Below, in pieces: positions 29,560 through 53,500 of a stretch of 64,000 nt of DNA. The DNA comes from Myxococcota bacterium (GTDB taxonomy: Bacteria; Myxococcota; JACRCW01): contig JBFMGU010000019.1 of NCBI GenBank assembly GCA_040752415.1, positions 1-64,000 on the forward strand, read 5' to 3'. The notes under the pieces were generated by a model that saw only the letters and a list, made by a program, of their open reading frames with translations, was not told where the DNA came from and made no database searches. The position numbers and the translations under genes were made by a program. How positions within the stretch are numbered: position 1 is the stretch's first letter; every line of letters starts with the position of its first letter.

Positions 29560-32500
29560 TCAGTTCCGCGTGCGCACCAACCGGACGCCGTTGTACTGCC
29601 CGTACCACGCCGGGTCCTCATCATCGCGCGACGCGCACCGCAGCTCGTCGGGGTAGCTCGCCTGGTCGCCACCGCGCAGCACGCGCCGGGTTCCCTCGCG
29701 GGCGCCCGTGGGATTGACCGAGTACGTCGGGTGCGCGCCGTACCAATCCTGCGTCCACTCGGCGATGTTGCCCGCCATGTCATACAGGCCCGCCGCGTTG
29801 GGGAGCTTCTCTCCCGGTGCAGAGAAGGGTGGGGTCCTCGTGTTGCCACAGAACCAGCCCACCTGCGTCATGGGCGTGCCCTCCGACGTCGGGAAGGACA
29901 TGCAGGATTGCTCGTTGCCCGCCGGAAGCTCACCGCCGACGGGCAGCGCTGACGACACCGCACCGGCCGAGCGCGCCGCGTACTCCCACTCCGCCTCGGT
30001 GGGCAGCCGGTATCCTTCACAATCCCGCGGCGGCATGGCCACGGTGCACTGGAAGCCGTCCAGGTAGCTCGTCATGGCGCAGACGTAGCAGAGTTCCAGC
30101 CCAAGCCTGGCGGATACCGCGTTGGCAAACGCCGCGGCCTCATGCCAGGTGATGAAGCCCACCGCGCACCTCCCGCCGGGGATGAGCTCGTTGACGTCGC
30201 CACTGCAGGCCCCGCGGAAGTCATGGGTGGGCAACCCGGCGGCGCGCAGGCTGCTGTTCAGCCGGTCCAGCGGGCTCCACCATCCCGTCCCGGACGGGTT
30301 GTACGCGGACATCTCGCGGACGAATTCGCCCACCGAGGCCTCGTAGGGGGAGATGTCAAAGGCGCCCAACGTCACCAGGTGCTCCGTCTCGTCGTCTTCG
30401 CGACCGCGCTCAGTGAGCGGGCTGCCCATCACGAACGTGCCGCCCGGGAGCGGAAGCAGGATGGGTACGATCCGGCAGTTGGAGTCGCAGTCATCACCGT
30501 CGAGCTGGTTGCCGTCGTCGCACTGCTCACCCAGCGCCAGGTTCAGCACGCCATCACCGCAGTAGCTGGCGCAGCGGTAGGTGCCATCCGCCTGGAGCGT
30601 ACCCACCTCGAAGTAGCGCGGCGAGTCGGCGGCCTTGGAGGTCAGCGGGACCAGGTTCTTGCTGTCGCGACGTACCTCGATGGTGGCCTGATCCCACCAA
30701 TCCGGGAAAAGGCTGACGGACCTGGAAAACAGCTCCAGCTCGTAGCGTCCCGGCATCAGGTTGACGTTCTGGTGGATCCAGAGGAACGGGAAGATGATCC
30801 CCAACTCCCGCGACGGCACCACGAAGCTCGGGAACTGCCGCAACATGGCCTCGTCCAGATTGAGGAAGCGGATCTGGCTCGCGTCCGCCGACGGCTTGAG
30901 CTCGTAGTCCGCATAGGGCGAGCCTGGGTGGGTGGCGGTGGCAAACCATTGATCCTCAAGCTCGTAACCATCAACGCCGTAGGGCGTGGCCAGGCGGGTG
31001 CCCGCGCTGTCGACGCGGTGGATCCACCACACCGCGCCTTCGCGACGCTTCAACGCCCAGTACCAGTCGCCCCACACGCCGTTGTACAACTGACCGCCAC
31101 CGGACAGCGGTGACACGTCGCTGTGGTCCCAGTCGTGGATCTGGACATGGTGGTAGGTGCACGCTTCCCAGCGGCACGCGCCGTTGCAGCCGTCGCCGCC
31201 GGCGCGGTTTCCGTCGTCGCACTGCTCGCCAGGGTTCAGCACTCCGTTGCCGCACAGCTCCACCTTGCAGCGTGAATCGCAGCCGTCGTTGGAGAGCAGG
31301 TTGCCGTCGTCGCACTGCTCGCCCCGCGCCGGCTGGACCGCGCCGTCACCGCAGTACTCCGCCCTGCAGTCAGCGGAGCAGCCGTCACCGCTGGTGGTGT
31401 TCCCGTCGTCACACTGCTCGCCCACCGCCGGCGCCCCGTCGCCGCAGCGCTCCTCGCGACAGAGCGGGTTGCAGCCGTCGCCGTGGCGATCGTTGCCGTC
31501 GTCGCACTGTTCACCGGGCTCCAGGGTGCCGTTGCCGCACGTCTCGGAGGCGCACGAGCCCACGGTGAGCATGTCGGTGCGATAGCCCCCTCCGGCGGAG
31601 AGTGACCCCGCGTACAGCGGCAGCCCGAGGCGATCCAGGATGCGGACGGTGCCACCCGCCCAGTCGGGACCGGCCAGGGTCACGGTGTAGACGCCCATGG
31701 GAAGGTCCACGGAACGCGTGTACTCGGTGTTGGCCTGCATCACCGGGCTCCGCGCCGTGAGTGCGTCGAACATGCCGTTGTTCTGCGCGGCAACCACCTG
31801 CCCCGCGACGTCCTGGATGATCCAGTCCAGGAGAGGGTAACCCTGCACGCTCGTCACCACCTGCTTGCGCACGCAGGGCTCGGGCACGCAGGTGATGCAG
31901 CCATCTCCACCGGCCTGGTTGCCGTCGTCGCAAATCTCGCCCACCGAGAGCTCGGCGACACCGTTGCCGCAGCCCCTGCCGCAGGCGGCCTGGAAGGGAA
32001 CCACCACGGACCGGCGGTCTCCGTCGAGGACGACCTTCACAATGGCATCTCCCCACGAATTGCGGATGGTGGCCGCACCGCGCGGCGACGAGTACGTCCA
32101 ATCCGGCGGAAGGTACATGCGGAGCTGCCAGGCGCCGGCGGGAATGTCGACGGGGAAGCTCCCTCCCTCCGCGGGGATGGAGCCGGGCGCGCCCCCGGTG
32201 AGCCGGCCGCCCTGGGGGTCCAGGATCTCCCAGCCCAGCAAATCCAGGCAGCCGTTGCAGCGGTGGTTGGAGAAGGTGATCTCGTGGCCAGCGCACGCCT
32301 CGAATCCGCAGGCCGCGTCACATCCGTCCCCGGCGCCGCTGTTACCGTCGTCGCACGACTCTCCGAGCTGCACCTGGCGCACGCCGTCACCACAGCGCTC
32401 CACGCGACATTCCTGGCTGCAGCCGTCCTCGCTCAGCTCATTTCCGTCGTCACAGTCCTCGTTGGTGCCAACCACGCCGTCGCCGCACCACAGGGCGTTG

Positions 32501-35500
32501 GGGCACGCCACGTCAAAGTCGACCTCCGCCGCGTAGGAGCGCGCGGGGATGGTGAGCGTGGCCACGAGGCGGTCGCGGTCATCCACGATCTCGATGTGCG
32601 TGTCGCCCCAGCCCTCGTGGGTCGCATCCCCGCGTAGCGTGTACCGGCCGTAGCGCATGCCGGTGAGCCGCTCGGATGTCATGGCGCTCGCGGGATACGG
32701 CGGCGCAACATTCGTGCGGCCGTACCAGGCAATGCCCTCGTGACTAAGCATCACCGTGCCGGTCGACGAGCGCACCTGCCAGTCAATCACGCGCTCGTGG
32801 TCGGCGTCGCCGGTGTAGACGCGCACGGTGTAGGGCGGGCAACGGCTGGGCTGACAGGTCTGGTCGCAGGTGCCGGTGGGGGCGTCCGGTGGGTCGTCGC
32901 ACAGCTCGCCCAGCGTAGGCTGGACAATGCCGTCCCCGCAGATCTCCACGCGGCACGTTGCGGAGCAGCCATCCCCGCTCACGGCGTCGCCGTCGTCGCA
33001 GACCTCACCGCGCGCCTCCTGGAGCTGGCCATCTCCGCACCACTCCAGCAGACACGCGGTGCGGAAGGGCAGGCGGGTGGGCGTGGGTCCGGCACCGCGC
33101 GAGCCGCGCACCACCTCGACACCATCGGCATCCAGGACGCTCACGAAGGCGTTGGTCCAGCCGCGCGTGTTGCCAGGCTCGTCGAGGATCAGGGTGTAGC
33201 CGCGCGGCGGCAGGTCCACCTCGTGCGTCACCACCGTGGCCGCAGGGTAGAACTCGGGGCCCAGCATGTCGGCGGAGGCGACCACCGCGCCCAGCTCGTC
33301 GCGCAGCCACCAGCGGTAGGACCCGGCGCTGGAAGTGTGCACCGCCACCGTGTGCGGGCCGCAGATGCCCACCTGACACGTCTCTGAGCAGCCATCACCC
33401 GCCACGGTGTTGCCGTCGTCACAGGCCTCACCAAGGTCGGGGTGGAGGATGCCATCGCCGCACCGCTGGGTGCACGACGCGACGAACGTGTTGCTGTGCA
33501 GGGGCGTGTTGGCCGGGATGATGCCGGATGCGATGCGGCCGCCGAACGCATCGCGCACCTCGTACCGGGAATCGGTGAGGTACGGGTTGTAACCCACCTC
33601 GGTCTCCTGCTCGAACGTGTAGATACCGTCGACGAGGTCCAGCGCGGTGACCTGTTCCACGTCGTCAAATCCACCCATGCCGGACGCCACCACCTGACGC
33701 TGCGCGTCGGTCACGCGCCAGGCGGCCGCTGCTCCCAGGTAGAAAGCCGCGGTGGTGAGCTCGTGACGCGCGCACGTCTCGAACACGCAGCTCGACGCGC
33801 ACCCGTCGCCATTGTCCAGGTTGCCGTCGTCGCAGGACTCACCGATGCCGGCCTGGATGTTCCCGTCTCCGCACCGTTCGACCACGCACGCCGAGGAGCA
33901 ACCATCACCGTCCACGAGATTGCCGTCGTCGCACGCTTCGCCATCGGCCACGACGCCATCACCACACCACGCCGGGAGACAGGGGATGTCGATCGCGCGT
34001 CCGCGGACATAGGGAGGCGCGGCGCCATGGGTACCGGAGAAGATCGGGGTCCCAACGAAGTCGGTGAGCTCGATGGAGCCGGACGCCCAACCCGCCGCCA
34101 CCCACGCCGTGGTTTCCAGCACGTGTGGTCCGGCGCCAAGGTCGAGCAGCGCCGTGGCCACTTCGCCGCTGGTGTAACGGCGGCCGTGGACCTGGAGGTG
34201 ATCGGCCACCACGCGACCATGGCCATCCACAATGCGCCAGCGCGGGTCGGTGGCGTCCAGCTCGGCGCGGTCGTCGGCGAGCACCCGCACTCGCGTGGGG
34301 GCGCAACGCTCCGCGGAACAGTCGGCTGCGCAGCCATCACCGGCCAGCCGGTTCCCGTCGTCACATTCCTCCGTGCCACCGAGCACGCCGTCGCCACAGC
34401 CTTCCACCTTGCACCATGGCGAGCACCCGTCTCCGTAGTCGGCGTTGCCGTCGTCGCACTCTTCACCGCGGGCCGGGGTGAGAAGTGCGTCGCCGCAGAA
34501 GTTCAGGGCGCAGGACACGCCGGGGAGCGTCAGGTCGAACGCGTGTCCATTTCCGGAATCAATCACCTCGCCCGAGGGCGCGTACACGACGTAGGAGCCG
34601 CCCGCGGCCGCGTCGAGATAGAACGACAGCGTGGAGGCCACGTTCGCCTGCACCGGCAGCATGACGACGTACTCGCGGTGTGCCGCCAGCGAACCGCGGC
34701 TGGCCTGCAGCACGATTTCTCCCCCACCGTTGTACAGCGTGTAGGCGGCGTTGGCGTCGGCGCCGGTGCGCAGTCGCAGCACATAGGGTCCGCAGCTCAC
34801 GCGACACTCCGGATCGCACCCGTCGCCGTCCAGCAGGTTCCCGTCGTCACACTGCTCGCCAATCTCGGTCTGCACGATACCGTCGCCACAGACGGGCGGC
34901 CGGCAGACCTGGGTACATCCATCGCCACCGACGCGGTTGCCGTCGTCGCAGGTCTCGCCGCGCTCGGGCTGCACCACGCCGTCGCCGCAGAACGCACCCT
35001 GACACCCAGCCTGGAAGTAGCGCGTGACGCCCCAACCGTCATTGTCGGCGTCCACTTCCACACGGGTCACCAGCGCTCCGTCGAGGGTGAAGACCTCCGC
35101 GCTTGCGTTGGTGCCGTCCACGGTGACGGAGGCCAGACCGGCCGGGATGGAAACCTCGACGTCCTGGATGGCGTAGGACGGGAGGATGGACACGCCGTTG
35201 CCCGGTGGGGTGGCCAGCACGCGGCCCGCGCCGTCACGGACTTGCCAGGAGACCCAGCCGTCTCTGCCGGCCTGGATGCGCACCCGGTGCGGCGCGCACG
35301 TCTCGCGCCCGCAGGTGGCGTTGCAGCCATCGCCGGGGGCGTTGTTACCGTCGTCGCAGGCCTCACCCGTGTTGACGTTGAGAACGCCGTCGCCGCAGGT
35401 GGCTCCGCACTGCGAGGTGAAGTCGAATTCCGCCACCAGCGTCGGTCCGGGGGGAACGTTGGGGAGCGGGCCCGTCGTGAACTCGCCGTGCGCAAAGATG

Positions 35501-38500
35501 CCGCCGTCGGCGTCACGCAGCTCAAAGGCATTGCGCGCGTACCGGGCGCGGTAGCTTGCGTAGTCGTACCACTGGATGCGCCAGTCGCCGGGCTGCAGCG
35601 TCACTGGAGCCGGGCCGGCGAACTGGTACACGCCAGCGTCGGAAAGCGGCAGCACCTCGCGGCCTGACCGGTCAACGACGCGCCAGCGCAGCAGGGAGCT
35701 CTCCGGTCCGCCATGCAGCTCGAGCGTGTGGGACGTGCAAGCTTCCGCGCGACAGGTGCTGGAGCAACCATCTCCGTCGGCGAGCGCGCCGTCGTCGCAC
35801 TGTTCGCCCAAGGCGGCCTGCACCGCGCCGTCACCACAGCGCTCCGTGCGACAATCCGGCCGACAACCGTCGCCAGACACCGGGTTGCCGTCGTCGCACT
35901 CCTCGCCCGCGGCCTGCTGGCGGACGCCGTCGCCACACCACGCGATGGTACAGGTGGTCTGGATGTTCGTGGCGGCCCACGTGGTACCTGGCATGACGTA
36001 GGCCGTGCCAAGGATGGCTCCGACGCTGTTGCGGACGCTCACCTGGTAGGCGCTGCTCACCGGCGCGTTGACCGCGACCTCAAGGCGGTGCGTTCCCGCC
36101 GACAACGAGATGGGACGCTCGAACGTGGTGGCACCGTCAATGCCCTGCCAGCCGGACTGCTCGACGATCACGCCGGCGGAGTTGCGCACGATCCAGCGGG
36201 CCGGGCCCACGGGACCGTTGGTCTGCACAACCGCGGTGTGGGGCTGACAGCTGCGCACGCAGCCTGTGGAGCAACCGTCGCCGTTGACCGTGTTGCCGTC
36301 GTCGCACTGCTCACTGACCTGCAACACACCGTCGCCACAGCGCTCGACAACGCATGCGGAGGAGCACCCGTCGGAGTCGTCGCGGTTGCCGTCGTCACAC
36401 GCCTCGCTGGCATCCACCACGCCATCTCCGCACCAGTGCGGGGTGCAGACGGCCTGGAACTGCGACGAGGGAGAGTAGGGCGGTCCCGAGAAGACGAGGT
36501 TCCCAAGGATATCGCGCAGCTCGTAGGTGTAGCCGGACGCGCCGTATGTGCGGTCATCGAACGTGTGTGGACCGGGCAAGAGCGTGACGGGTACGCGGTA
36601 GCTGGACACGGGCTCCGGCCATGCCACGTAGCGCACGCCGTTGTTGCCGCCCTCCGCCGCCACGCGACCAAACCCGTCGATAAAGCGCCACGCCGACTCG
36701 GCGCCGGTGGGCGTGTTGATCTTCAAGTCATGGGGCGCGCAATGCGCCACGCAGGCGGAGGTGCAGCCGTCGTTGTCGTTGGTGTTGCCGTCGTCACACT
36801 GCTCGACCGGCTGGCGGATGCCGTCGCCACAGCGCTCGGCCTGGCAGTTGGCATTGCAGCCGTCCAGGGAGACGTTGTTGCCGTCGTCGCAGGTCTCTCC
36901 CGCATCAACGGTCAGCACTCCGTCGCCGCACCAGCGACGCTGACAGGTGGCGTTGAAGGTGAAGTACGCGGGGTAGCCTCGTCCAGCGTAGAGGTTGTCG
37001 ACGACGAGCGCGAGGGCGCCGCTGCCGTCGAAGATCTCCAGGCGCCCACCATTTCCTGCGCTACCAACCTCCACCGTGTGCTGTCCGGGAAGCGCCTGGA
37101 ACAACACCGACGTGTCTGAGAACGGCTCCAGGTTGCCGCCGCCACTCAGCACCACTTCGCCGGCGGGCCCCATGATGCGCCAGTACGCGTTGACGGAGGT
37201 GCCGGCGCCCTGGATGCGCAGCCTGTGTGGCTTGCACGCCTCGCCGGTGCACGCGGCGGTGCACCCGTCATCCGAGGTGACGTTGCCGTCGTCGCATTCC
37301 TCGTTCCGCAGCGGGTGCACCACGCCGTCGCCGCACTGGGCGTTGCAAAACACGCTGAACTCCGCCCCCAGCAGGGGCAGCGGGTAGTCGCGCGTCAGCT
37401 TGCCGCGTGCGCGTACGCCGCCGAAGGAATCCACCAGGCGCCAGTAGGCGTCATCAGGGATGCTGTCACCGGCAAACTGCATCGCGTAGTCGCCGTCGCC
37501 GAGGGAGATGGAGACGCCGACGCTGTTGTCCACATCCAGGAGCCGACCATCAGCCACCACGGAACCGTCAGCGCGGTCGACGATGGACCACGTCGCGAGG
37601 GTCAGCATCCCGGCCTCGAGGAAGAGCCGGTGGCTCGCGCACGCCTCGGCAACGCAGGTGGCGCCGCAACCATCCCCCGCCACCGCATTGCCGTCGTCGC
37701 AGGACTCACCCAGCCAACCCTGCACCACGCCGTCGCCGCACTCTTCCACCACGCACTGCGCGGAGCATCCGTCGCCGTCGGAGGCGTTGCCGTCGTCGCA
37801 GGTCTCGCCCCGGGCCAACTGCACCACACCGTCGCCACACCACTCCGCCTGGCACGACGTGACGGGGAGACCCACGGTGCGGACGAACTGACCGTCAAGC
37901 TGCGCCGTGACGAGCACCTGGCCCGTCGGCGAGACCAGCTCCATCCGACCATCCCAGTAGCCGTATTCCCGCGCATCGAGAGTGAGGGAGTGCGTTCCCA
38001 CGCCGAGGGAGACGGGCACCTCGTAGGTCCGGTTGTTCTGGTAGAGACCATCGGACGCCCGGTGTTCAGCCACCAACGACCCGAGCGCGTCTCGCACCGT
38101 CCAGCCGATGAAGCTTGGCCCGTCCCAGCCCAACGACGGCGTGACGATGCGCAGGGTGTGGGGCGCGCAGCGTTCCCACAGGCACGTGGCGTCGCAACCG
38201 TCGCCGGGGAGGAGGTTGGCGTCGTCACACTGCTCGCCCAGCGCGGGTTTCAGCGTGCCATCACCGCACCAGCCGCTCACGCAGCGCGTGTTGCACCCGT
38301 CATCGTTGACCGTGTTTCCGTCGTCACAATCCTCGCCCAGCTCCGGCTGGATCACACCGTTGCCGCACGCCTCCGTGCGACACACGGAATCGCAACCGTC
38401 ACCCGACACCTGGTTTCCGTCGTCGCACAGCTCATTGCGCCCGGCCTCCACGACGCCGTCGCCACACCAGTGCGTCTGACACGTGGTGACGTTCAGTTCC

Positions 38501-41500
38501 GCGCGGAGCTGCCGGCTCCCCACGTACCGCCGGTTCGTCGCCGACGACGTGCCGTCGGGCGCGACCATCTCGAACGATGCGTAGAGCGCGTCACAGGCGT
38601 GCGTGATTTCGAGCGTGTGGAAGCCGAGACGGGCGGGCAGCGGCGCCGTGATGATCGAGCCCGCGGGCCACCAGTTAGGATCCTGCGGACCGACGGGCAT
38701 CGGCTTTTCCGCCACCACCTGGCCGGCAGCGTCGCGGAGCACCCAGGACGCCTGCTGGCAGTTGTTCCCGTTGGGCGGATAGCGCTCGGTCACCACCCGG
38801 AGCACATGTGGCGCGCACGTTTCGAGCTGACAGGTCGCGCTGCAGCCGTCGTCGCTGGTGGTGTTTCCGTCGTCGCACGCCTCGCTGAGGGACGGATGCG
38901 GAACTCCGTCGCCGCAGCGCTCCGTCACGCATCGCGGATCGCAACCGTCGCCCGCCGTGGCGTTACCGTCGTCGCACTGCTCACCGGCCTCGGGCCGCAG
39001 CACACCGTCGCCGCACCACGCGCTGGTGCAGGGCGGAGTGAAGCTGAAGCGCTCGACGGGAAGTGGTCCCTGGTAGCGGCCGGACGCCACCACGGCTCCG
39101 CCGGTACCCACGACTTCCAGGTATGGATTGCCGTCGGTGGTCCAGCTGATCATCTCCACCGTGTTGCGACCCACGCGCACCGGCAGAGGGAAGTCGAGCA
39201 CGGCATTCCCGGGCAGCGCGCCGTCTTCCACGCGGATGTGCTTGGCAATCACGTTGCCCAGCGGGTCCAGCACTCGGAAGTCCGCGACGCCATTGGACGG
39301 CGTGTGCAAGCGGACCACCGCGGGCTCGCAGGCGGACCACTGGCAACCCGTGCCGCACCCGTCGCCATCGACCGCGTTGGCGTCGTCGCACTGCTCGCCG
39401 CGTCCCGGGCTGAGCACGCCGTCGCCACAGCTGCGTGAACAGGCGGTGGTGAAGGTGGCGCGGACCGGACCGGCGTTGTTGAGTGACAGCTCCACGTGGG
39501 TCAACACGGTGCCCAACGCATCCGTGAGCTCCAGCACGTGTGGCCCGTTGTATGACGAGGTCCCCGCGGCGGTGGCGTCGTAACGCACCTCCAGCGTGTG
39601 GTCGCCTTCGGTCAACATGATCGCCTGTGTCGTCGTGGCGAAGCTCGGGAACGTGCGCGTCGGTGCGAAGGCCACCACGCGCTGCGCGGAAGCAAGAATG
39701 AAGGTCAAGCCCTCCGCGCCGTCCGCACCGCGCACTGTCAGTGTGTGCGCCGCACAGGCCTCCCAGGTGCAACCCGCGCACCCATCCCCGGCGTTGGCGT
39801 TGCCGTCGTCGCAGGACTCCCCGATGCCTGGCTGCACCACGCCGTCACCGCACCACTCGACCTTGCAGGTGCGCGTGCAGCCATCGCCGGTCACATCGTT
39901 TCCGTCATCGCACTCCTCGCCCAGCGGGGGCTGCAGCACGCCGTCACCACATCCCTCGACGCGGCAGGTGGGATCGCACCCGTCGCCGGAGTTGGTGTTG
40001 CCGTCGTCGCAGCCCTCGTTCGCCTGCAGCAAGCCGTTGCCACAGACCTCGAGTCGGCACTGGGCATCACATCCGTCGCCAGTCCGCAGGTTGCCGTCGT
40101 CGCATTCGTCGGTGGCTTGGAGCACGCCGTTGCCGCAGACCTCGGTGTGACACTGCACGTCGCAACCGTCGCCTTCGACGGCGTTGGCGTCGTCGCAGGT
40201 CTCGCCGCGGCCGGCCTGGAGGATTCCGTCGCCGCAGCGTTCGACCGCGCAACCGGCGGAGCACCCGTCGCCGGAGTCGGGGTTGCCGTCGTCGCACGCC
40301 TCGCCCAGCTCAGGCTGGAGGACGGCGTTGCCGCAGCGCTCGGTGATGCACTGGGGATTGCATCCGTCCGCGGCGTTGGCGTTTCCATCGTCGCACAGCT
40401 CGCCGAGGGAGGGATGGAGGATTCCGTCGCCACAATTGGCCTCACAGCGGGTGACAAACGCGCGCGTTCCAAGCGAGCCAGTGGCGATGACCCCGCCGTA
40501 GCTGTCCACCACCTCGTAGCTGCCGTTCCACCAGTTGCCATAGGGAACCGACGACGCCACGAATTGGTACGCCCCGGGCGGCAGGCGTACGGCGTGGGAA
40601 TAGGTGCGCGACGCCTCGTAGGGCCCTGCGTTGCCGGCGACGCGGAGTCCCTGGGCGTCACGAATCTCCCATTGCACGCCCAGGCCGCTGTAGCCGGTGC
40701 GGATGCGCACGGTGTGATCGGCGCAGCTCCCGGACACGCAGGTGGGACTGCAGCCGTCGCCGTCGACGTCGTTGCCGTCGTCGCAGGTCTCGCCCAGCGC
40801 CGCGTGCACCACGCTGTCGCCACAGCGCTTCTCGCAGGCGGCGGTGAACGGGACATCCTGACGGATTTCCGTGGTACCGGTGCTGCCGGTGGGGTTCCCG
40901 AGGATCCGCTCGGCAATGCGGCCACCGAGATGGTCATCCAGGGTGATTCGGCCGCCCATCCATCCCGCCCATCCGCCGGTGATGATGCGCAACGTGTATG
41001 CGCCCGGCAGCAACGACACGGGCGTCGTGACGCGCTCGTTGTTCTGGTAGCTGTTGTACCCGCGCTGCATCACGACCACGCCGTCGTCGCGGACAATCTC
41101 CCAGCCCACGGCGTAGGCGGTGGTGGTGGTCTCCACGGTGACCGAGTACGCCGCGCAGGCCTCGAAGCGGCAGCCCGCGCCGCAGCCGTCCCCGTTGGCG
41201 GTGGCGCCGTCGTCGCATTCCTCGCCCAGGGCCGGGTGGGCCATGCCGTCGCCGCAGACTTCCACCACGCAGGCGGTGTTGCACCCGTCCCCATCCGCCG
41301 TGTTCCCGTCGTCACACGGCTCGCCAACCTGGACCAGGCCGTTCCCGCACACTTCCGCGCGACAACGCTCGTCGCAACCGTCACCCGCGGTGTGGGCTCC
41401 GTCGTCGCAATCCTCACCGATGCCGGGCTGCGCCACGCCGTCGCCGCAGCTCTCCACCACACACTCGCTCGAGCAGCCATCGCCGCTGACCGCGTTGTCG

Positions 41501-44500
41501 TCGTCACATTCCTCACCAAAGGCGGCCTGCACCACGCCGTCGCCGCATGCCTCCACCTCGCAGCGACCGTTGCACCCGTCCTCATCGACGGTATTGCCAT
41601 CGTCGCACGCCTCGCCCGCCAGCGGCTGGACAACGGTGTCGCCACAGCGGATGCCGCAGCTCGTCTGGAATTGCAGCTCGGTGGTGGCGGCGCCTGAGAG
41701 CGGAACGCGGTGACGGATGCCGCCGCCCGGATCCTGCACCTGCAGCTCGCTGTTGTTGGGCAGTCCGTCGTCGGCTTCGGTGAGGATGAGGCGATAGGTG
41801 CCCGCGGGGAGGTTGACCAGTGTGGTGAAAGCCTGGCCGCCAGGGCGGAACGCAAACGGCGCCTGGCCCACCAGACGACCACCGGCGTCCAACACCCGCC
41901 ACCCGTAGAGCGCCCCGGACCTCACGAACACGGCGACCCGGTACTGCGCGCACGCCTCGAAGGCACACGTCGACGAGCAGCCATCGCCATCCGCGGCGTT
42001 GCCGTCGTCGCACAGTTCCGCGCGCGGAGCCTGGATCACCCCGTCACCACAGAGCTCGGCGCGGCACGTGGACGAGCAGCCATCGTTGGAGGTGACGTTG
42101 CCATCGTCGCAGTTTTCGCCGAGCGCGCCCTGGATCTGGCCGTCGCCGCAACCCTCGAGGAAGCAGCGTGCGGAGCAGCCATCCTCGTCGCGGTTGTTGC
42201 CGTCGTCGCACGCCTCACCGCGGAAGGCCTGGACCACGCCGTCTCCGCAGCGCTCCACCACACAGGCGCTGCTGCAGCCATCTCCCGAGGCCGTGTTGCC
42301 GTCGTCGCAGGTTTCACCGCGACCGGCCTGGAGCACCCCGTCGCCGCAGCGCTCCGTGCGACAGGAGGTACCGCAACCATCGCCCGCCACGGTGTTGCCG
42401 TCGTCACAGGATTCCCCGCGACCAGCTTGGATGATCCCATCCCCGCACCGCTCGAGCGTGCACGTGGCGCTGCATCCGTCCTCGGGGAGCGTGTTCCCGT
42501 CGTCGCAGGTCTCGCCGCGGCTGGCCTGGACCACGCGGTCGCCACAGCGGTCAACCTCGCACGTGGTGCCACACCCATCATCCAGGACGGAATTTCCGTC
42601 GTCACACTGTTCACCCAGCGAGGTCTGCACCACGCCGTCGCCGCACCGCTCGTTCAAGCAGGCGGCGGAGCAACGGTCTCCGTTCACCAGATTCCCGTCG
42701 TCACACTGCTCGCCCAGTGCCGGCTGCCAGGCGCCGTCGCCGCAGCGCTCGGTCACGCAGAGGGCGTTACAACCGTCGCCGGGCGCGGTGTTGCCGTCGT
42801 CGCAGGTCTCCCCGATGCCGGCCTGCACCAGGCTGTCACCACAACGCTCACGTGCGCACGCGGCGTCGCACCCATCGTCGTCCTGGAGGTTGCCGTCGTC
42901 GCATTCCTCGCCCAGGGCCAGTTGGGTCACGCCGTCGCCGCAGAACTCCTGCACGCACGCGGCCGAGCATCCATCCCCCGAGGCGCGGTTTCCGTCGTCA
43001 CAGGCCTCGCCGCGCTCCGCCTGCGTGAGGCCGTCTCCGCACCACGTGTTGACGCACGCGCCCCCGAAGTCGACCACGCCGCTGCGACGGTCCTGGAGCG
43101 TTCCCGACGCGATGACCGTGCCGGTGCGGTCGGTAATCTCGAAATAGCCGTACTGGAGCCAGCCCCAGCCCGCGGTGTTGGCGGCGTTGAGCACCATGCG
43201 GTACGCGCCCACGGGCAGGTTCAACGGAACGGTGTACGTGGTGTAGCTGGTGTACGCGCCGACGGGTGAGCTGGCGACGATCTGGCCGCTCTGGTTCAGC
43301 AGGGTCCAGCCATACCACTGACCCTGGTCCTCGGTGCGGACGCGCAAGGTGTGGGCCGCGCACGCCTCGAAGCGACACGTGGAGTCGCAGCCATCCCCTT
43401 CGGCGGTGGCGCCGTCATCACACTGCTCGCCGATTCCACCTTGCACGATTCCATCGGCACAGCGCTCGATCACGCAGGTGGCGTTGCATCCGTCGTTGGC
43501 CACCCGGTTTCCGTCGTCGCATTGCTCACCGGTGGCCGTCTGGAGGAATCCGTTTCCACACAGTTCGTCCCGGCACTGCGCGTCACACCCGTCGGCGTCC
43601 TCGGTGTTGCCGTCGTCGCACCGTTCACCCAGGGCCGGCTGCACCACGCCGTCGCCGCAGCGTTCGACCGCGCAGGTGGCATTGCACCCGTCCCCCGCAA
43701 CGCGGTTTCCGTCGTCACAGGCCTCACCGCGGGCCGCCTGCAGAGCACCGTCACCACACCACTCCACCACGCACGGGGTGGCAATGGCGGCGGAAGCGGT
43801 TCCGCTGCTCGGCAGGTCGACCTGTGCCACCACGTCGCCAATGTGGTTGCGCAGCTCGGCCGTGCCGCGCACGTACGCGCTCGGATGTACCGCAAAATCA
43901 AGCGTGGCCGAGCCGTCGACGAGAATGACGTCGTAGGTTTCGTCCGCCGCGTAGTACAACGCGTTGGGAGGAACGGAGAGGACCGCGCGTCCCAGGTTGT
44001 CCCGCACCGTCACGGAGAGGTCGGAAGCGCCTGCCTCGACCCGCAGCCTCAACCGGTAACGGCCGCACTGCTCCACCTGGCACTGGTCATCACATCCACC
44101 GCCGTCCACCGCGGCGCCGTCGTCGCATTGTTCACCGCGAGCCGTCTGCACCACCCCGTCGCCGCAGGCTTCCACCAGGCATGTGGGGCCGCACCCGTCG
44201 TCGGGAGTGGTGTTGCCGTCGTCGCAGGTTTCGCCGCGCGCGGCGTGGATGATGCCGTCGCCACACCGCTCCGCCGCACACGCGGGACCGCATCCGTCGT
44301 CAGGACCCGTGTTGCCGTCGTCGCATTCCTCGCCCAGCGGGAGCTGCAGCACGCCGTCGCCGCAGAATTCGAGCCGGCAGGTCGCGGAACAACCATCGCC
44401 GGAGATGGCGTTGCTGTCGTCGCATTCCTCGCCCGCCAGGACCACGCCGTCGCCGCACCACCGCGCCTGACATGCCTGCACGGTGAACCCGACCGCGCCC

Positions 44501-47500
44501 TCACCGTCGTTGAAGCCGGCGCCGGTGGCCACCGTGGCGCCCGCGGGGTCCAGGATCGTAAAGCGCGCGCCAAAGCTCCAGCGCAGATACGCGGGGTCCA
44601 GGCGCTCGAAGGTGTAGCTGCCAAGACGGAGGTCCAACGCCTGCTCGACGACCTGATTCCCGGTGTACGTCCCGGCGGCCGCACTGGCGACTTCCACGCC
44701 CAGCCCGTCCAGGAGCCGCCACGCGACGTCAAACCCCAGACCGGTCTCGATACGGAGCACGTGCGGCTGGCAGCGCTCGGTCTGGCAGGCCGCGTCGCAG
44801 CCGTCGCCGGGCACCACGTTTCCGTCGTCACAGGCCTCACCGGCGGCGCGGTGGAGGATGCCGTCACCGCAGCCTTCCACGCGACAGGTGCGCGAGCAGC
44901 CGTCGTTGTCGGCGCGGTTTCCGTCGTCGCAGTCTTCGCCCGCCTGGACGACGCCGTCGCCGCACCAGGTGGTCACACAGGTGGCGGTGAAGGGCTGCGG
45001 GAATGCGCTGGCGTCGCGGAGCGCACCGCCGGCCACCGTGGCTCCGTCGAGCAGGGCCACGCGCCAGGTCTCCTGGTTGGAATCCGGCCGGTAGACCAGG
45101 CTGAGCTGACGGAAGCTGTGCGGGCCGGGTGCCAGGACCACCTCGCGCGTGAGGCTCCCGGTGGCCGGTCCGTCGGGCGTCACCACCGCGGTGCCGTCGG
45201 CGTCGAGGATGCGCCAGGTCTCCAGGTTGTCCGGTTCCACCGACGACACGGTGAGAACGTGGGGCGCGCAGCGCAGGCGACACAGACTGTCGCAACCATC
45301 GCCATCCTGGGTGCCTCCGTCGTCACACTCCTCGCCGAGCTGGACGTAGCCGTTGCCACACGACTCGAGGCGGCAGAAGGCGTCGCAGCCGTCACCCTCG
45401 GTTGTGTTGCTGTCGTCGCATTCCTCGCCCAGCGTGGCCTGCAGGACACCGTTGCCGCACGTCTGGAGCAGGCAGCCCAGTTGCAGCGGCACGTCCTGGG
45501 TGATGACGCCAGGCCGGATGCGCTCCGTCGCCACCACGGTTCCCGCGGCGTTGAGCACCTGCAGGAAGGCACCGTCCGGCCAGCCCGTGGCAAACGGGTC
45601 GCGCAGGGTCAGCGCGTATGCGCCGGAGAACGCAGGAAGCTCCGTGTCCACGAAGATGTTCGGCTGCGTGTAGCTGCCGGGAAGCATCTCCGCCACGACG
45701 ACACCGTGGTCATCCCGGACGGTCCACCCGATGCGGCCAAAGAACGCGTCGGTCCGGACCCGGACGGTATGCGACCGGCAGAAGTGCGCCGCGCAGTTGT
45801 CGGAACAGCTGTCCCCGTTGTTGTTGTTTCCGTCGTCGCAGACCTCCGCGCGGGCGCGTTGCACCAAGCCGTCGCCGCAGCTCTCCACCAGGCAGACGCT
45901 GGAGCACCCGTCCCCGCCGACGAGGTTGCCGTCGTCGCACGCTTCGCCCAGCGCGGGCTGCGTGAGCCCGTCGCCGCAGCCTTCGCGCACGCAGGTGGCG
46001 CTGCACCCGTCTCCCACGTTGCTGTTGCCGTCGTCGCATTCCTCATTCGCTTCGATGCGGCCATTGGGGCAGCCCTCCGTGAGGCACGCGGCGCAACCGT
46101 CGCCGCCGACGTTGTTGCGGTCGTCGCAGGTCTCACCCAGCGCGGCGTCAACATAGCCATCCCCGCAGTAGCCTGCGCATCCCAGGGTGATGGGCGTGAT
46201 CACGGTGCGGGCGGCCCCACCCGGGCCATCCACGGTCCCCGACGCCACGACGCCCGCGGGACCGATGAGCTCCCACGTGCTGCCGTACCAGGAGCCCGCA
46301 GGAGCCACGGCCACGAGCTCGTATTCTCCCGCCAGGAGCTGGACCGGTGTCTCCACGACGGCAACCCATCGCGACGCGCCATACGCCACCATCTCACCGC
46401 CCACGCGGCGCAAGCTCCAGTCGGCCGGCACCTGGTTGACGGAGTTGAGACGCACCACGTGCGCCGCGCATCCCTCGATTGCGCAGGCGGCGCTGCAGCC
46501 GTCGCGGTCCTGGGTGTTCCCGTCGTCGCACGCTTCGCCAAGGAACGTCTGCACAATGCCGTCCCCGCAACGCTCGGTCAGGCAGGTTTCACCGCATCCG
46601 TCGGCGGGATTCGCATTGCCGTCGTCACAGTCCTCACCCGCGCCGGCCTGGATCGTCCCGTCGCCGCAGCGGGCCGCCACGCAGGTGTTCGAGCATGCGT
46701 CGTCATCGACGAGGTTGCCGTCGTCGCAGTCTTCACCGGCCTGGACGCGTCCATTGTTACATTGCTCGATGAAGCAGGACGGATCGCACGAGTCACCCGC
46801 CGCAATGTTGCCGTCGTCGCACTCCTCGCCCAGGAACGCCTGGGTGAACCCGTCGCCACAGCCCTCCAACTTACAGGTCGCGCCACAGCCATCGGCGACG
46901 CTAGTATTCCCGTCGTCACACGTCTCTCCCGCGCCGGCCTGTACGCGTCCATCCCCGCATTCCGCCGCCACGCAGGTGTTGGAGCACGCGTCGCCGTCGA
47001 CGTCGTTGGCGTCGTCACATTCCTCGCCGGGGTCCGTGATGCCGTTGCCGCACCATTGGCGCTCACACGCGAGCGTGAGCGTGGCGGGCTGCAGCCAGGG
47101 GAGCGAGGCGGTGGCGACGACGGTGCCGCGCCAATCCCGGACCTCGTAGCTGCCCCACGGCGTGTAGGCGGGTTGCGGGATGTAGGAGGCCGGGATGTCC
47201 AGCGCATACGTACCGCCAGCAAGGCGCAGCGCGACGGTGTGCGTGGAGCCGTTCGTCACGCCGGGGTCCGTCGTCGGAGAAGCCGCCACGGAGCCTTGGG
47301 CGTCGCGCAGGCGCCACTCGCTGAAGACGCGGGAGAAGCGCGTCTGGAACACCAGCTCATAGGGAGCACACGCCGACTGACACGCGGCGCAGTCATCGGT
47401 GTCGTTGGTGTTTCCGTCGTCGCACTGCTCGGTGAGCCAACGCTGGACCAGGCCATCACCACAGGCCTCGGTGCGGCAGGTCCGACCGCACCCGTCGCCA

Positions 47501-50500
47501 TCGACGGTATTGGCGTCGTCGCACTCCTCTCCCATGGTCGCGTGCAGGACGCCGTCGCCGCAGACCTCGGTGTGGCAGTCCGGCGTGCAGCCGTCACCGG
47601 GCAGGGTGTCCCCGTCGTCGCAGGTTTCGCCCAGGCCCGGCTGGACCACGCCGTCGCCGCAAATCTCGTCCCGACAATACGAGGTGCAACCATCTCCATC
47701 GGCGCGGTTTCCGTCGTCGCACGTCTCCGGCGCTTCCATCACGCCGTTGCCGCACCACCGGATCTGGCACGCCGCGGCGCGGAAGGGCTCCTGTTGCCCA
47801 AACGTCAGGCCGACTCCGCCGGTGAGCAACGTCCCATCAAACGTCGTCAGGGTGTAACCGGAGCAACCCCAACCCTCGCCCACCCGCTCAAAGGTGTGAT
47901 CGCCCACGGCAAGCGCAAGCGGCACCTCGGTGGACGTGAGCCCCACGTAGGTGCCCACCGTTGCCGAGGCCACCGTGCGGCCAAACCTGTCGCGCACCAC
48001 CCATCCCAGTCGCTCCGCGCACCACGTGGTCTGCGCTTGCAGGCGGAGCAGGTGTGGCGCGCAGGCTTCGAGCTGGCAGGCCCCATCACAGCCGTCGCCG
48101 GACGTGAGGTTGCCGTCGTCGCAGACCTCGGGGAACTGCACCACGCCGTTGCCGCAGACTTCGTTCCGGCACGTGGCGTCGCACCCGTCGCGGGAGACGT
48201 TGTTGCCGTCGTCGCAATCCTCGCCCCGCGCGGGCTGGACAACCGTGTCGCCGCAGGATTCCACGCAGGAGGTCTGGAACGGGAACGTCTCCCGGTCCCT
48301 CGTGTAGCTGCCGCGCCATTCCAACGTGCCGGTCCGCAGCACCGCTCCGTTGAGGTCCCGCACCTCGAAGAACCCTCCGGGCCAGCTCGCATAGGGGCTG
48401 ATCGCGGTGAAGGTGTAGGAACCCGCAACCAGCGTCACGTCGGTGAAGTAGTCGCGCTGCTGCTGGTATCCCTGTCCGCCCGATGCCACGAGGGTGCCCG
48501 CGCTGTTGTGGATCTCCCACGAGAGCGAGGTGGACCACCCGGTGAACACGCGGACCACGTGGCGTGCACAGCCCTCGACGGTACAGGTTGGGCTGCAAGT
48601 ATCGCCTGCGATGTTGTTGGCGTCGTCACACGCCTCGCCCTGGTGGAGGATTCCGTCGCCGCAGACCTCAATCTGGCACGTTGGGCCGCAGCCATCTCCG
48701 CCCGCCGTGTTGCCGTCGTCGCACTGCTCGCCGATGTCCGCGCGCAGGAGGCCGTCGCCGCAATAGCCGACCACGCAGCCGCGGTCGCAGCCATCGCCGT
48801 TGATGTCATTGCCGTCGTCACATTCCTCGCCCAGCGCCGGCTGCGGGATTCCGTCGCCGCACACCTCGGTGCGACACACCTTGTTGCACCCGTCGCCATC
48901 GACCTGGTTCCCGTCGTCGCACTGCTCGTGCGGCTCCACCGTGCTGTTTCCACAGGAGGGCTCGCACGTCTGCGCCTGGATGAAGACGTTGGCGGAATCC
49001 GTGCCCGGATCGGGATACGCGCCAATGGTCTGCAGGAGATTGCCGCTGGCGTCGAGCACCTCCAGCGTCGTGCCTTGGCCCCAGCCCTCGTACTGGGTGG
49101 CGAGGTAGTCGAGGCGCTGGAGTCGGTAGGTGCCCAACACCAGCGCCACCGTGACGTTGTAGGTGGTGTTCGGCGCCAGGTCTTGCGGGAGTCGCTCCAG
49201 CACCAGCGTGTTCGACCGGTCATACAGGCGGAAGCCCGTGGCGGCGCTCGTGAAGTACGTGGCGCTGCCGGTGTGGAAGCGGAAGGTGTGGGGCTGACAG
49301 GGCTCCGTGGTGCAGTCGGCGTCGCAACCGTCGTCATCCGCGGCGTTGCCGTCGTCGCATTGCTCTCCGTCGCCCAGCGTCAGGATTCCGTCGCCACAGA
49401 ACTCCTCCTGGCAGTTGGCATTGCAGCCGTCTCCGTCGACGCGTTCGCCGTCATCGCACTGTTCACCCAGGGAAGGCTGCACCCGTGCGTCGCCACACCA
49501 GCCGGGGATGCAGGTGATGTCCACCGGGTTCAGCACGACGTAGGTGGGGTAGCCCTGCGACCAACCCGAGTCGACGAGCTGACCCCGGAAATCGAACAGC
49601 TCGTAGTAGGTGTTGAATCCCTGCGTGGTCCCGTCCTGGAGCTCGAGGGTGTACCGGCCCTGCCAGAGGCTCAGCGGCACTTCCACCTCGGACAACTCCT
49701 GCGGAATGGCGGTCTGCTGCGCCACCACGACGCCACGCGGGTCCAGGACGCGCCAGGACGTGGCGGACGCGTAGTAGCCGTAGTGCAGGACAAGTCGGTG
49801 GGGCGCACAACTGGCCACGCACCCCGTGGTGCATCCGTCTTCCTCGTCGACGTTGCCGTCGTCACACGCCTCGGCCAGCTGCCAGTGCGCGTTTCCGCAA
49901 GCTTCCGGGTAGCACTCCGCGTCACAACCATCCCCGCCAGAGTTGTTGCCGTCGTCGCAAACCTCGCCACGGTTGGTCTGGATGATGGTGTCACCGCAGC
50001 GCGTGATGCGGCAGGTGTTGTCGCAGGCATCCAGCGGGTCGCTGTTTCCGTCGTCGCACTCCTCGCCCTGGTCCACCACGCCGCTGCCACATCCCTCGAT
50101 GCGGCACCGGGTGTCGCAGCCGTCGCCGTCGTCGAGGTTTCCGTCGTCACAGCGCTCGCCAATGTCCGCCTGCAGCTTTCCGTCGCCGCAGTACTGGTAG
50201 TAGCAGTTGACATCAAAGGGCCCCGTGCCCTGGCCGGTGGCGTCGTAGACCTGCTTGTTGCCCAGGAGGACGATGCCGCCACCGCGGTTCTCCACCTGCC
50301 AGCTCGCCATACCGAACGCGTTTCCGGGCGGCGCACCAGGGTTGAACGTGAAGGGGCCCACCGGGATGAAACCTCCGGGCTGCGCATTCAGCAGGTCCAC
50401 GTGCTCGACGTAGTCCGTGTTCGGCTGTGTGTCCGTGGGACCCAGGAAGGTCCATCCGTTGGCGGAGCGGATGCTCCACTGCGCGGACCCCGTGCCGGTG

Positions 50501-53500
50501 CGGTAGCGCACGGTGAAGGGCGCGCAGCTCTCTCCCTGGCACGTGTCGCTGCAGCCGTCGCCGGCCTGGGCGTTTCCGTCGTCGCAGGTCTCGCCGGTCT
50601 GGATGACGGAGTCCCCGCAAGTCTCCCGGCGACAGGTCGCGCTGCATCCGTCGTTGGAGGCCGTGTTGCCGTCGTCGCACGTCTCGCCGTTGACCCACGG
50701 CTGGACCACCCCGTCACCGCAACGTTCCACACGGCAGTCGTAGGCGCACCCGTCAACGTTCAGCAGGTTCCCGTCGTCGCACTCCTCGGGAGCCTCCCGC
50801 GTGCCGTTGCCGCAGACCTGTGGGTCGAGACAATCCACCAAGCCGTCCTCGTCGGCATCCGCCACGCAGTCCGTGTTGCAGTTGGGCGCGTTGTCGTCGC
50901 AGTCGGCGGCACACGTGCCAACGCCGTATCCGTCACCATCCATGTCCAGACACGGATCGCATGCGTCACCCACGCCATCGCCGTCGGTATCCGTCTGCGG
51001 GGCGCCGGCCAGTTGCGGGCAGACGTCACACGCGTCGCCGAGTCCGTCGCCGTCGGCGTCGACCTGGTCGGGGTTGGTGACGGCGGGGCAGTTGTCGCAC
51101 GCAAGGCCCACGGTCTCCCCCGGCAGCTCACCGACCGAGTGGATCCGGATGGCGCCCCGCACCGCGGCCGTGGTCGGACAGCACACCTGCTTCGTCGCGA
51201 GCTCGATGTACATCGGGTACGAGTCCGCGCTCAGCGCCGTGGTGTTCGTGAGCCAGAGCTCCCAGATGCCATTGCGCCGGAAATACACCTCCACCACGTT
51301 TCCGGTGCGAACGAGCCTCACGCCGCCCGGCGCAAGGTCTACCCCAACAGACTCGGGAAGTTGGCCTGCCCCCGCGATGTAGTCACCCTCGTAGTAGCTC
51401 CAGCCGCAATTGGCTCCGGAGTCGGCCATCCAGATGCCGAAGGTGCCGTAGGGGGAGCTGTCCGGCTCGCGCAGGATGTCCAAGCCAAGGCCGGGGCATT
51501 CCGAGTCGGCGCCGATGAGGTAGAGGAACAGGGTGCCCGGCGCCGTGAACGTGACGCTCAGCTCGATATCGAAGTCGCCGAAGGTCTGCGTCCCGAGGAT
51601 CCGCGCCAGGCCGAGCGCGCCGTTGCGGTGGAGCAGCAGGTCGCCGTTCTCCACCTCGGCAACGCCGTGCGTCACCCGCCACTCCGCCAGGTTCAGCGTC
51701 GTGCCGTCGAATGTCTCGCTGTAGCCGCCCCCGGCGACGGCCTGGTCCGGGTTGCTGACCCCGGCACAGTTGTCGTCCTGATCTGCGATGCCGTCGCCAT
51801 CAGAGTCCCCGCTGTCGCAGGCGTCCCCGATGCTGTCATTGTCGACGTCCCCCTGGGTGGGGTTGGGGACGCTCACGCAGTTGTCGCAGGCGTCACCGCG
51901 CTGGTCGCCGTCGATGTCGGCCTGGTCCGCGTTGGAGACGCCGGGGCAGTTGTCCACCGCGTCGCAGGCGACGTCAGCATCGGCGTCGACGCACGGGTCG
52001 TCGCAGTCCCGCGCACCATCGCCGTCGGTGTCGGTGGTGCAGTTGGTGGTGCAAGCGGCTACCGCGTCGTCGCAGTCCACGGTGCTGCACAAGCCGTCCC
52101 CGTCGGCGTCCACGCAGGTGTCGCGGCAGTCGAAGATCGAATCGTTGTCGATATCCGCGCAGGTGGCGGAGCAGAGGGCGCTGGTGTCGTCGCAGTCATC
52201 GAGGTCGCGGCACAGCGCGTCACCGTCTCCGTCGACGCAGGGATCGTCACAGTCCCGCTGCGTGTCCCCGTCGACATCCGCGGTGCAGTCGAGCTGGCAG
52301 GTGGCCACGGCGTCGTCGCAGTCCGTGGGCCGACAGGTGCCATCCGCATCCACGTCCACACAGGGATCGTCACAGTCCCGCGCCGTGTCAGCGTCGAGGT
52401 CGGTGGTGCAATCGGTGGTGCACGACGCGCGGGTGTCATCGCAGTCTGCGGTGCTGCACACGCCGTCCGCGTCAACGTCCAGGCAGGCGTCATCGCAGTC
52501 ACGACGACCATCCTGGTCCGCATCGCTGGTGCAATCCGTCGTGCACAGCGTCACGGCGTCGTCGCAGTCATCCGTGTTGCAGATCAGGTCCTGGTCGACA
52601 TCGATGCAGGTGTCGCGGCAATCCGGCAGGTTGTCCCCGTCCACGTCGGTGCAGTCCAGCGCGCAGGCTGACGTGGTGTCGTCGCAATCCGTTGCGCCGC
52701 TGCACAGGCCGTCGGCATCCGCATCCACGCAGGGATCATCACAGTCCCGTGCGCCATCTCCATCCGTGTCCACGGCGCACGCAACGTTGCACGTGGGAAC
52801 GGCGTCATCGCAGTCGGCGGCGCACTGGCCCGCGCGGCCGAACCCGTCCCCGTCGGCGTCGACGCAGGAGTCATCGCAATCCCGCCAGCCGTCCACGTCC
52901 ACGTCGGTGAAGCAGTCGTAGCGGCAGGTGGGCACCTCATCGTCACAGTCCGCGCGGCATCCGCCGCCCGAGCCCGCGCCGTCCCCGTCGACGTCCACGC
53001 AACGGTCCAGGCAATCCGTGGTTCCATCCTGGTCGCGGTCGGATGTGCAATCGGCCGCGCAGCGCGACGAGGTGTCGTCGCAGTCGGCGGGCAGGCACAC
53101 GCTGTCGCGGTCCTGGTCGACGCACGGGTCGTCGCAGTCCCGCGCGCCGTCGCCGTCCGTGTCGCCGGTGCAATCGGAGCTGCAACCCGTCACCGCGTCG
53201 TCGCAGTCATCCGGGCGGCACGAGCCGTCAGCATCCACGTCCACACAGGGGTCACCGCAGTCCGGCGTGAGGTCCACATCCACGTCCGTTGCGCAGTCGT
53301 CCACGCAGCCGATCGCGTCGTCATCGCAGTCCTGATTGCGGCAGGAGCCGTCGCCGTCCACGTCGACGCACGGATCCTCGCAGTCCGGCAGGCTGTCGTT
53401 GTCGACGTCGGTCTGGCAATCGGCCGCGCAGGTTGCCGAGTTGTCATCGCAGTCCGCGTCCCGGCAGACCCCGTCGTTATCCACGTCAAAGCAGCCGTCG

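Follow-up and report, generated by a model that had tools for sequence, protein, structure and literature searches.

Within the first 64,000 nucleotides of contig JBFMGU010000019.1 of a Myxococcota bacterium (assembly GCA_040752415.1; this whole stretch is the window below), one gene encodes a giant repeat protein. A single open reading frame (ORF) runs through it on the minus strand, and its central part carries 33 divergent modules set among Cys-rich DUF4215 repeats. The gene is intact, and its product is extremely acidic, rich in Cys and probably exported. A preliminary description of this DNA, made from the sequence alone, had seen in the array a possible single-chain binding repertoire with variable loops.

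The giant gene and its array of modules

The likely true start of the frame is an ATG at 54831 or 54912. G+C content is 64-72% across the window (2-kb windows), which, like the TIGR02232 repeats described below, fits a Myxococcota genome, and G+C at third codon positions (GC3) of the giant frame is 0.85. Four long antisense ORFs over the gene, one of them of 3,106 aa (43351-52671, plus strand), matched no Pfam family and are most likely shadows of the GC3-rich coding frame. The layout from N- to C-terminus is as follows.

29560..55242, minus strand: giant ORF, 8,560 codons counted from the first GTG, with all Pfam and NCBIfam matches over the region on this strand
54769..54831, minus strand: probable signal peptide with a lipobox-like end (...GGWGC), as read from the sequence
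51943..54768, minus strand: acidic Cys/Asp repeats, about 940 aa, no Pfam family
50824..51942, minus strand: thrombospondin-type-3-like Asp repeats flanking a domain of about 250 aa without family (TSP_3 E 0.003, below cut-off)
30475..50823, minus strand: DUF4215/TIGR02232 array with 33 modules (Pfam, NCBIfam, regular expression)
29563..30474, minus strand: C-terminal FGE-sulfatase-like domain of C-type-lectin fold (PF03781, E 3.3e-36)

The mature protein of about 8,423 aa contains 629 Cys (7.5%), 1,038 Asp (12.3%) and 23 Lys, with a net charge near -995. The sequence ahead of it resembles a signal peptide that ends at a lipobox-like Cys. Lys makes up 0.27% of its residues (23 of 8,423; 29560-54831, minus strand) versus 1.0-3.2% in four neighboring proteins, a scarcity that may protect it from Lys-specific proteases or may be a trait of calcium-binding matrix proteins.

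The array covers residues 1474-8256. Its thread is built of four-Cys DUF4215 units of about 36 aa with an acidic motif, CDDGN/GDGC. Each unit would contain about two disulfides, and calcium probably makes the thread stiffer. A regular expression for the DUF4215 core counted 98 units. When the protein was searched as two halves that share a 100-aa overlap, PF13948 (DUF4215) scored 578.7 and 793.2 bits (cut-off 27) over 40 and 45 stretches, and the NCBIfam model TIGR02232 (myxo_disulf_rpt) scored 1010 and 1419 bits (cut-off 20.8) over 48 and 51 stretches, 99 in all. A run of 11 DUF4215 units had no match in the PDB by sequence at E<=0.01.

The modules were delimited as the long gaps left by the regular expression. 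There are exactly 33, each with Cys as its first and last residue; 32 are 94-113 aa long and the final one is 197 aa. The successive spacers hold 3, 4, 2, 4, 2, 4, 6, 4, 2, 2, 4, 4, 11, 5, 1, 7, 1, 2, 3, 2, 1, 2, 2, 2, 1, 2, 2, 2, 1, 2, 2, 1, 4 and 1 units. In an alignment of 32 modules, from which M33 was omitted (alignment A1), C1 and C103 are invariant (32/32), G26, G52 and G81 are conserved to at least 90%, and the consensus reads CAPHxLRxxT..WxxxDxxGxVVA..VxLxxGxYTL..W..ExxDxxGxxxxxG..F..C. The modules are not a product of chance, since the A1 profile recovers all 32 at domain E-values of 1.7e-13 to 8e-30. Pairwise identity among the 33 averages 24% (range 10-43.5%). The preliminary description, which had placed about 33 divergent modules between 30480 and 50820, with a conserved frame that agrees with this consensus, closure by flanking Cys and spacing by one or several DUF4215 units, was accurate on each of these points; the spacers in fact run from one to 11 units. 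All modules lie on the minus strand.

50203..50526 (-): M01, residues 1573-1680
49510..49809 (-): M02, residues 1812-1911
48964..49299 (-): M03, residues 1982-2093
48265..48570 (-): M04, residues 2225-2326
47767..48063 (-): M05, residues 2394-2492; the sole module with G[DNE]GW
47065..47370 (-): M06, residues 2625-2726
46177..46470 (-): M07, residues 2925-3022
45472..45780 (-): M08, residues 3155-3257
44977..45270 (-): M09, residues 3325-3422
44470..44772 (-): M10, residues 3491-3591
43771..44067 (-): M11, residues 3726-3824
43054..43362 (-): M12, residues 3961-4063; the structure-modeled module
41656..41952 (-): M13, residues 4431-4529
40834..41157 (-): M14, residues 4696-4803
40444..40725 (-): M15, residues 4840-4933
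39439..39756 (-): M16, residues 5163-5268
39028..39330 (-): M17, residues 5305-5405
38479..38817 (-): M18, residues 5476-5588; extra Cys pair, common to the paralog
37852..38169 (-): M19, residues 5692-5797
37345..37641 (-): M20, residues 5868-5966
36943..37236 (-): M21, residues 6003-6100
36445..36741 (-): M22, residues 6168-6266
35950..36249 (-): M23, residues 6332-6431
35407..35739 (-): M24, residues 6502-6612
35002..35298 (-): M25, residues 6649-6747
34510..34794 (-): M26, residues 6817-6911
33979..34305 (-): M27, residues 6980-7088
33472..33774 (-): M28, residues 7157-7257
33052..33363 (-): M29, residues 7294-7397
32503..32841 (-): M30, residues 7468-7580
31981..32295 (-): M31, residues 7650-7754; extra Cys pair, common to the paralog
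31552..31875 (-): M32, residues 7790-7897
30571..31161 (-): M33, residues 8028-8224; 197 aa with large insertions, paralog counterpart 36% identical over 172 aa

A paralogous giant and the predicted fold of the module

The same genome encodes a second giant. The assembly (11.0 Mb in 520 contigs, 96.8% complete) contains 64 matches to the module, 32 in the giant and 32 on contig C478, where positions 11842-38100 of the plus strand encode a protein that likewise has 33 modules, spaced in the same way, and finishes with an FGE-like domain. The C478 giant falls into two frames, one of 4,813 aa and one of 3,964 aa, and frameshifts are apparent near 26.1-26.3 kb and near 37.9 kb. The second part of this giant, as called in a public record, is P0002 (3,905 aa). 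The lipobox-like ...GGWGC of the giant has ...SAWGC as its counterpart, where the mature part of the paralog begins. The flanking proteins of the two loci share no match at E<=1e-8. Next to the giant lie genes for a reprolysin-like peptidase, a BNR/sortilin protein and an ADP-ribosylglycohydrolase. Elsewhere in the window (15521-19498, plus strand), an unusual 1,325-aa fusion of HIT, PLD-nuclease, ResIII/helicase, Peptidase_S24 and DUF3427 domains may be a defense or repair protein.

The two giants correspond module for module. The best match of 32 of the 33 modules is the positional counterpart in the paralog (28-62% identity; the exception is M29), and 28 of the 29 spacers that can be compared hold equal numbers of DUF4215 units. 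In the four loops described below, 21, 20, 17 and 18 of the 32 pairs agree in length, versus 9.3, 4.6, 4.2 and 4.9 with shuffled pairing. Sequence identity between the giants is 0.452 for the modules, 0.646 for the spacers, 0.485 for the FGE-like domain and 0.68 for the N-terminal repeats. Some modules keep specific loop sequences or extra Cys pairs in the paralog (M04, M06, M18, M22 and M31), and in others the loops are unrecognizable (M02, M20 and M27-M29). From the positional match of modules, spacing and loop lengths, it follows that the full array predates the gene duplication and has since been kept module for module. This bears out the view that the modules are not interchangeable spacers.

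The same conservation would be expected of a homophilic barcode, in which two fibers, on one cell or on kin cells, would line up so that every module meets its own copy, in self or kin recognition. Module order and spacing are strictly kept between the paralogs, and 45% module identity would give two codes that do not cross-react. There is also a precedent: Myxococcus xanthus TraA is reported to perform homotypic recognition through a variable beta-sandwich domain that is presented on a stalk of Cys-rich repeats (PMC3325183). According to the same source, TraA has one PA14-like domain at its N-terminus, repeats of the TIGR04201 type and a MYXO-CTERM tag, whereas the giant has 33 interspersed modules of another family, TIGR02232 repeats and a lipobox-like N-terminus. 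Pfam and NCBIfam scans of the whole giant returned no PA14, TIGR04201 or MYXO-CTERM at E<=0.01, and conservation of order is equally expected under any function with differing modules. We regard the barcode as improbable. Its most explicit form, with the 33 modules as a linear code, the paralogs as two orthogonal codes and the whole as a hard-wired, single-chain analogue of Dscam/protocadherin matching, seems to us a shade more improbable.

For a single module, AlphaFold2 predicts the beta-sandwich that the preliminary description had proposed. The model of M12, built on A1 and thus from alignments that held only paralogous modules of the giant itself, has eight strands (positions 3-9, 17-23, 28-32, 42-48, 52-60, 73-77, 83-88 and 96-101; pLDDT 87.4, pTM 0.81). 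With one DUF4215 unit on each side, the same eight strands are predicted (pLDDT 81.9), and the units appear as small, mostly irregular knots (pLDDT about 70-85). A Foldseek search of the module model against the PDB returned nothing at E<=1e-3. The best matches of an exhaustive structure search were the calcium-dependent carbohydrate-binding modules CBM60/CBM36 and PLAT/C2-type eight-strand sandwiches, at values typical of models without a true match. These sandwiches use loops at one pole, and they have no sequence relationship to the module.

Insertions are unevenly placed on this fold. In a profile alignment of 32 modules of the giant and 32 of the paralog (one paralog row is missing), they occur after columns 10, 15, 32, 37, 60, 64, 66, 86, 88 and 96, which correspond to loops 1-2, 3-4, 5-6 and 7-8. 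Other sites show rare insertions of one or two residues, and a larger site follows column 50 in 3 of the 64 modules. The alternate turns 2-3, 4-5 and 6-7 (columns 23-27, 49-52 and 75-79) have Asp or Gly conserved to 61-95% and almost no insertions or deletions (indels). Because successive loops between eight up-and-down strands lie at alternate poles, the four indel-prone loops would all be at one pole, and the conserved tight turns would be at the other, together with the two ends of the chain. Judged from this strand order, the indel-prone loops probably lie opposite the Cys clasp.

In such an arrangement, the chain would enter and exit the module at one pole and be clasped there by a disulfide between the two terminal Cys. 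With entry and exit at the same pole, each module would be a side branch that adds no length to the thread; it would hang sideways with the opposite pole exposed, and the exposed pole would carry loops 1-2, 3-4, 5-6 and 7-8, the sites of variable length.

These predictions bear on a structural reading, in which the giant is a matrix fiber: a calcium-loaded polyanionic scaffold whose modules serve as folding or bulking nodes without a ligand of their own, while the terminal domains (the FGE-like tip and the N-proximal domain) do the binding. The extreme composition of the protein suits a scaffold of this kind, and no fold relative with a binding function rises above noise. As modeled, however, a side branch with meeting termini would be a poor design for a spacer. 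Further, all 33 modules, their order, nearly all spacer counts and most loop lengths have survived a duplication with dS of about 1 or more, and module-specific loops and extra Cys pairs were retained with them, for example in M06, M18, M22 and M31. Structural repeats usually homogenize or vary in number. We consider the structural fiber a real but distinctly less probable alternative to the adhesin that we favor below.

The module family and the terminal domains

The module fits no named family in Pfam, NCBIfam or, by sequence, the PDB, as the first description had suspected. M12 alone reached 16.8 bits against FlgD_ig (PF13860, cut-off 27) and 16.4 bits against MalQ_N (PF21226, cut-off 24.1), both below cut-off; summed over 4,360 aa, MalQ_N reached 24.6 bits, with no single stretch above cut-off. 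NCBIfam gave no match for the module. The best PDB hit of the module profile by sequence had an E-value of 0.018, and its echoes in a Lap adhesin, a collagen adhesin and Bap are not significant (E 0.03). In the ESM Atlas, structural matches with TM 0.82-0.85 show the canonical module fold as an unannotated accessory domain in peptidase M43, endonuclease plus CBM_4_9 and LVIVD/choice-of-anchor B clusters, and a search by features returned only unnamed clusters (scores 0.90-0.92, recognition value under the bar).

The family itself is large. Against a library of 1.84 billion members, the A1 profile matched 2,774 cluster representatives at E<=1e-3, 585 at E<=1e-10 and 67 at E<=1e-30. Among the best 150 of the 2,774 matches, which were inspected, 137 hold at least one long module, and only three of these have DUF4215 motifs (the paralog P0002, P0004 and P0065). 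The ten top matches lack a source name or are called 'hypothetical protein', 'PKD domain-containing protein' or 'RHS repeat-associated protein'. Fifty-four fetched proteins contain 106 full-length modules at domain E<1e-5, with Cys at the last column in 85% and at the N-terminal end in 44%, the latter an undercount. In 17 of the relatives scanned with Pfam, no model was above cut-off on the modules; only partner domains were matched, and these include type IX secretion system (T9SS) tails, PKD and galactose-binding-like domains.

In many of the closest relatives, among them the five-module P0007 and small three-module proteins, loop 5-6 holds a strongly conserved DsfGDGWnGg and the module has Cys at both ends. 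Members of this GDGW-loop family include P0021 and P0046 (three modules, about 520-570 aa), the five-module P0007, T9SS cargo proteins and a Lewinella 'PKD domain-containing protein' (P0003, 5,167 aa). They share with the giant's modules the W, D..G, G.Y.F, D..G frame, the C-terminal Cys and an extracellular context, but their modules are usually in tandem and without DUF4215. P0021 and P0046, both from metagenomes, are small and lipoprotein-like. On either side of their three canonical GDGW modules stands a Cys motif (C..C....GDG.CD..C......DGGDC), which presumably resembles Notch/LNR-type repeats and has no Pfam match.

The combination of DUF4215 and module is rare among the proteins inspected. 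At E<=1e-5 the module was found in none of the 40 nearest genomes searched and in one of 400 other genomes sampled from the phylum (G075, three copies; in this larger run 12 candidates per genome were scored). It was found in none of 23 other DUF4215 giants of 4,714-7,334 aa and in one (P0180) of the best 120 DUF4215 proteins of 874-1,987 aa. Searched with its C-terminal 533 aa, the giant matched named species genomes only in the FGE-like or DUF4215 part, and an orthologous giant was not found. Three metagenomic kinds of protein come closest. P0180 (1,839 aa, 5'-truncated) shows the DUF4215/module alternation and a C-terminal FGE-like domain as in the giant, P0004/P0152 (2,016 aa, seven modules) shows the same alternation, and P0065 (598 aa) combines DUF4215 with the module. 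They have fewer modules than the giant (at least 4-7 at E<1e-3), and these are not positional counterparts of the giant's, matching scattered modules at 29-45% identity.

The literature searched held no published description of this module or architecture. Giant repeat surface proteins as such are of a known kind; the module family has neither a name nor a solved structure. It is unusual that 33 non-equivalent modules are so strictly conserved by position, and so is their proposed insertion as side branches in a Cys-knot thread.

Outside the array, the Cys/Asp repeats consist of 31% Asp and 14% Cys, with DCDD motifs at intervals of 23 and 18 aa, so that one pair spans about 41 aa, and match no Pfam or NCBIfam family. 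No other DNA in the gene is as self-similar as theirs (at 123-nt offsets, 67-69% identity over 2-2.6 kb). The region of about 370 aa between these repeats and the array has a partial NCBIfam match to MtsC (NF047638, 99 bits against a cut-off of 350). Within it, the domain of about 250 aa between the thrombospondin-type-3-like repeats (50983-51795, minus strand) has a jelly-roll or lectin-type look by eye and no family match. The C-terminal domain exceeds the PF03781 cut-off (125.7 bits against 23.3) and also matches TvpA (2y3c, E 1.5e-14), the variable protein of a diversity-generating retroelement (DGR), and PorK/GldK. The catalytic Cys pair of human FGE (C336/C341) has no equivalent in it: GGSYMCHRSYC of 2afy/2aft faces GGD---QASYP, with Cys at neither position. 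Given these matches and the missing Cys, this lectin-fold domain probably has a binding or structural role and is not an active enzyme.

Variation among modules and the proposed function of the array

The loops are the fastest-evolving part of the modules, without detectable positive selection. Column entropy averages 3.30 bits in the distal loops, where 35 of 40 columns exceed 3.0 bits, 2.52 bits in the strands (14 of 46 columns) and 2.25 bits in the proximal turns. The variable loops of the preliminary description are therefore present as length changes in four loops, but substitutions are not confined to them, as 14 of the 46 strand columns are just as variable. Its account of segments rich in Tyr, Trp, Gly and Asn holds for Gly (4.7-fold enriched in loops relative to strands) and Asn (4.1-fold) but hardly for Tyr (1.39-fold) and Trp (1.13-fold). 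Across 31 of the 32 module pairs, identity between positional counterparts at high-entropy columns is 0.296 in strands and 0.296 in loops, and distal-loop identity is 0.314 between counterparts versus 0.122 between non-counterparts. Variability thus spread over all exposed positions is a further point for the structural fiber.

Substitution rates between the paralogs were estimated by Nei-Gojobori counting, a rough measure here with dS near saturation (about 1.0-1.1), GC3 at 0.85 and uncertain loop alignments. Omega (dN/dS) is about 0.26 for the spacers, 0.54 (0.47-0.60) for the strands, 0.61 (0.54-0.71) for the distal loops and 0.42 (0.31-0.54) for the proximal turns; no class reaches 1. Strand dN is exceeded by loop dN only 1.35-fold (1.19-1.53), and the idea of hypervariable loops under diversifying selection is not supported by this comparison. 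The lack of loop-specific positive selection is likewise what the structural reading would expect.

Alternatively, the loops could belong to an actively diversified repertoire, under diversifying selection or under targeted mutagenesis of a DGR-like or recombinational kind. The four indel-prone loops at one pole would suit such a system, as would a C-terminal domain with the fold of a DGR variable protein, and in M02, M20, M27 and M31 loop dN is at or above dS (about 40 codons each). The genome, however, offers no sign of the machinery. For the last 450 nt of the gene, no template-like copy was found in the assembly, the only long match being the paralog at 70.7%; no RVT_1 domain in the 11-Mb, 96.8% complete assembly is above cut-off (one match on another contig reached 24.8 bits against 29.6); and no DNA repeats of at least 100 nt within the gene exceed 80% identity, so there has been no recent conversion. 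With neither a template repeat nor an RVT_1 match above cut-off in this assembly, the giant was rejected as a DGR target protein. Together with the pooled loop omega, these results largely refute an actively diversified repertoire, which we consider very unlikely and the least probable of the readings weighed here. The differences between modules are probably old, fixed in the genome and under moderate purifying selection, and would not stem from an active diversifier.

Overall, we propose that the giant is a multivalent adhesin of the cell surface or matrix, a reading to which we give about an even chance of being correct. It is favored because the modules have been individually maintained across the paralogs in position, spacing and loop length with omega below 1, because the relatives show an extracellular, accessory-domain context, and because the FGE-like tip without a catalytic Cys resembles ligand-binding lectin-fold proteins such as TvpA. 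The ligands would probably be polysaccharides or cell-surface molecules. A surface or matrix fiber of this design would present 33 non-equivalent faces and a lectin-fold tip. DUF4215 repeats also occur in a protein of diatom adhesive trails (10.1101/2023.03.06.531300).

Several observations weigh against the adhesin. The AlphaFold2 model has only the giant's own paralogous modules behind it, and the pole geometry and the C1-C103 disulfide are deduced from strand order rather than from coordinates. The insertion site after column 50 would lie at the other pole. Tyr and Trp are hardly enriched in the loops, and loop dN exceeds strand dN by little. G[DNE]GW is found at one site in the giant, in M05, versus 64 of 136 module-bearing relatives, and the loop 5-6 motif is otherwise reduced to a Trp at 50%. 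Loss of a probably ancestral functional loop motif could mean loss of binding, as the structural fiber would have it.

Giant repeat proteins are usually read as adhesins made of near-identical, in-line spacers. LapA/Bap/SiiE-type adhesins are very large, acidic and probably calcium-binding, with in-line and often near-identical beta-sandwich repeats. The giant differs in that its modules are 24% identical on average, seem to be held by a clasp at a single pole and have Cys-knot units between them, and Pfam reported no RTX or type I secretion features in it. If the model is correct, the display design would be a disulfide-knotted thread from which 33 different domains leave and re-enter at one point, and an old paralog has kept each module, its place and its spacing while the sequences drifted to 45% identity. 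Defining the module family and the ligand of one module would annotate thousands of secreted proteins and show whether bacteria can hard-wire a multi-specific binding array in a single chain.

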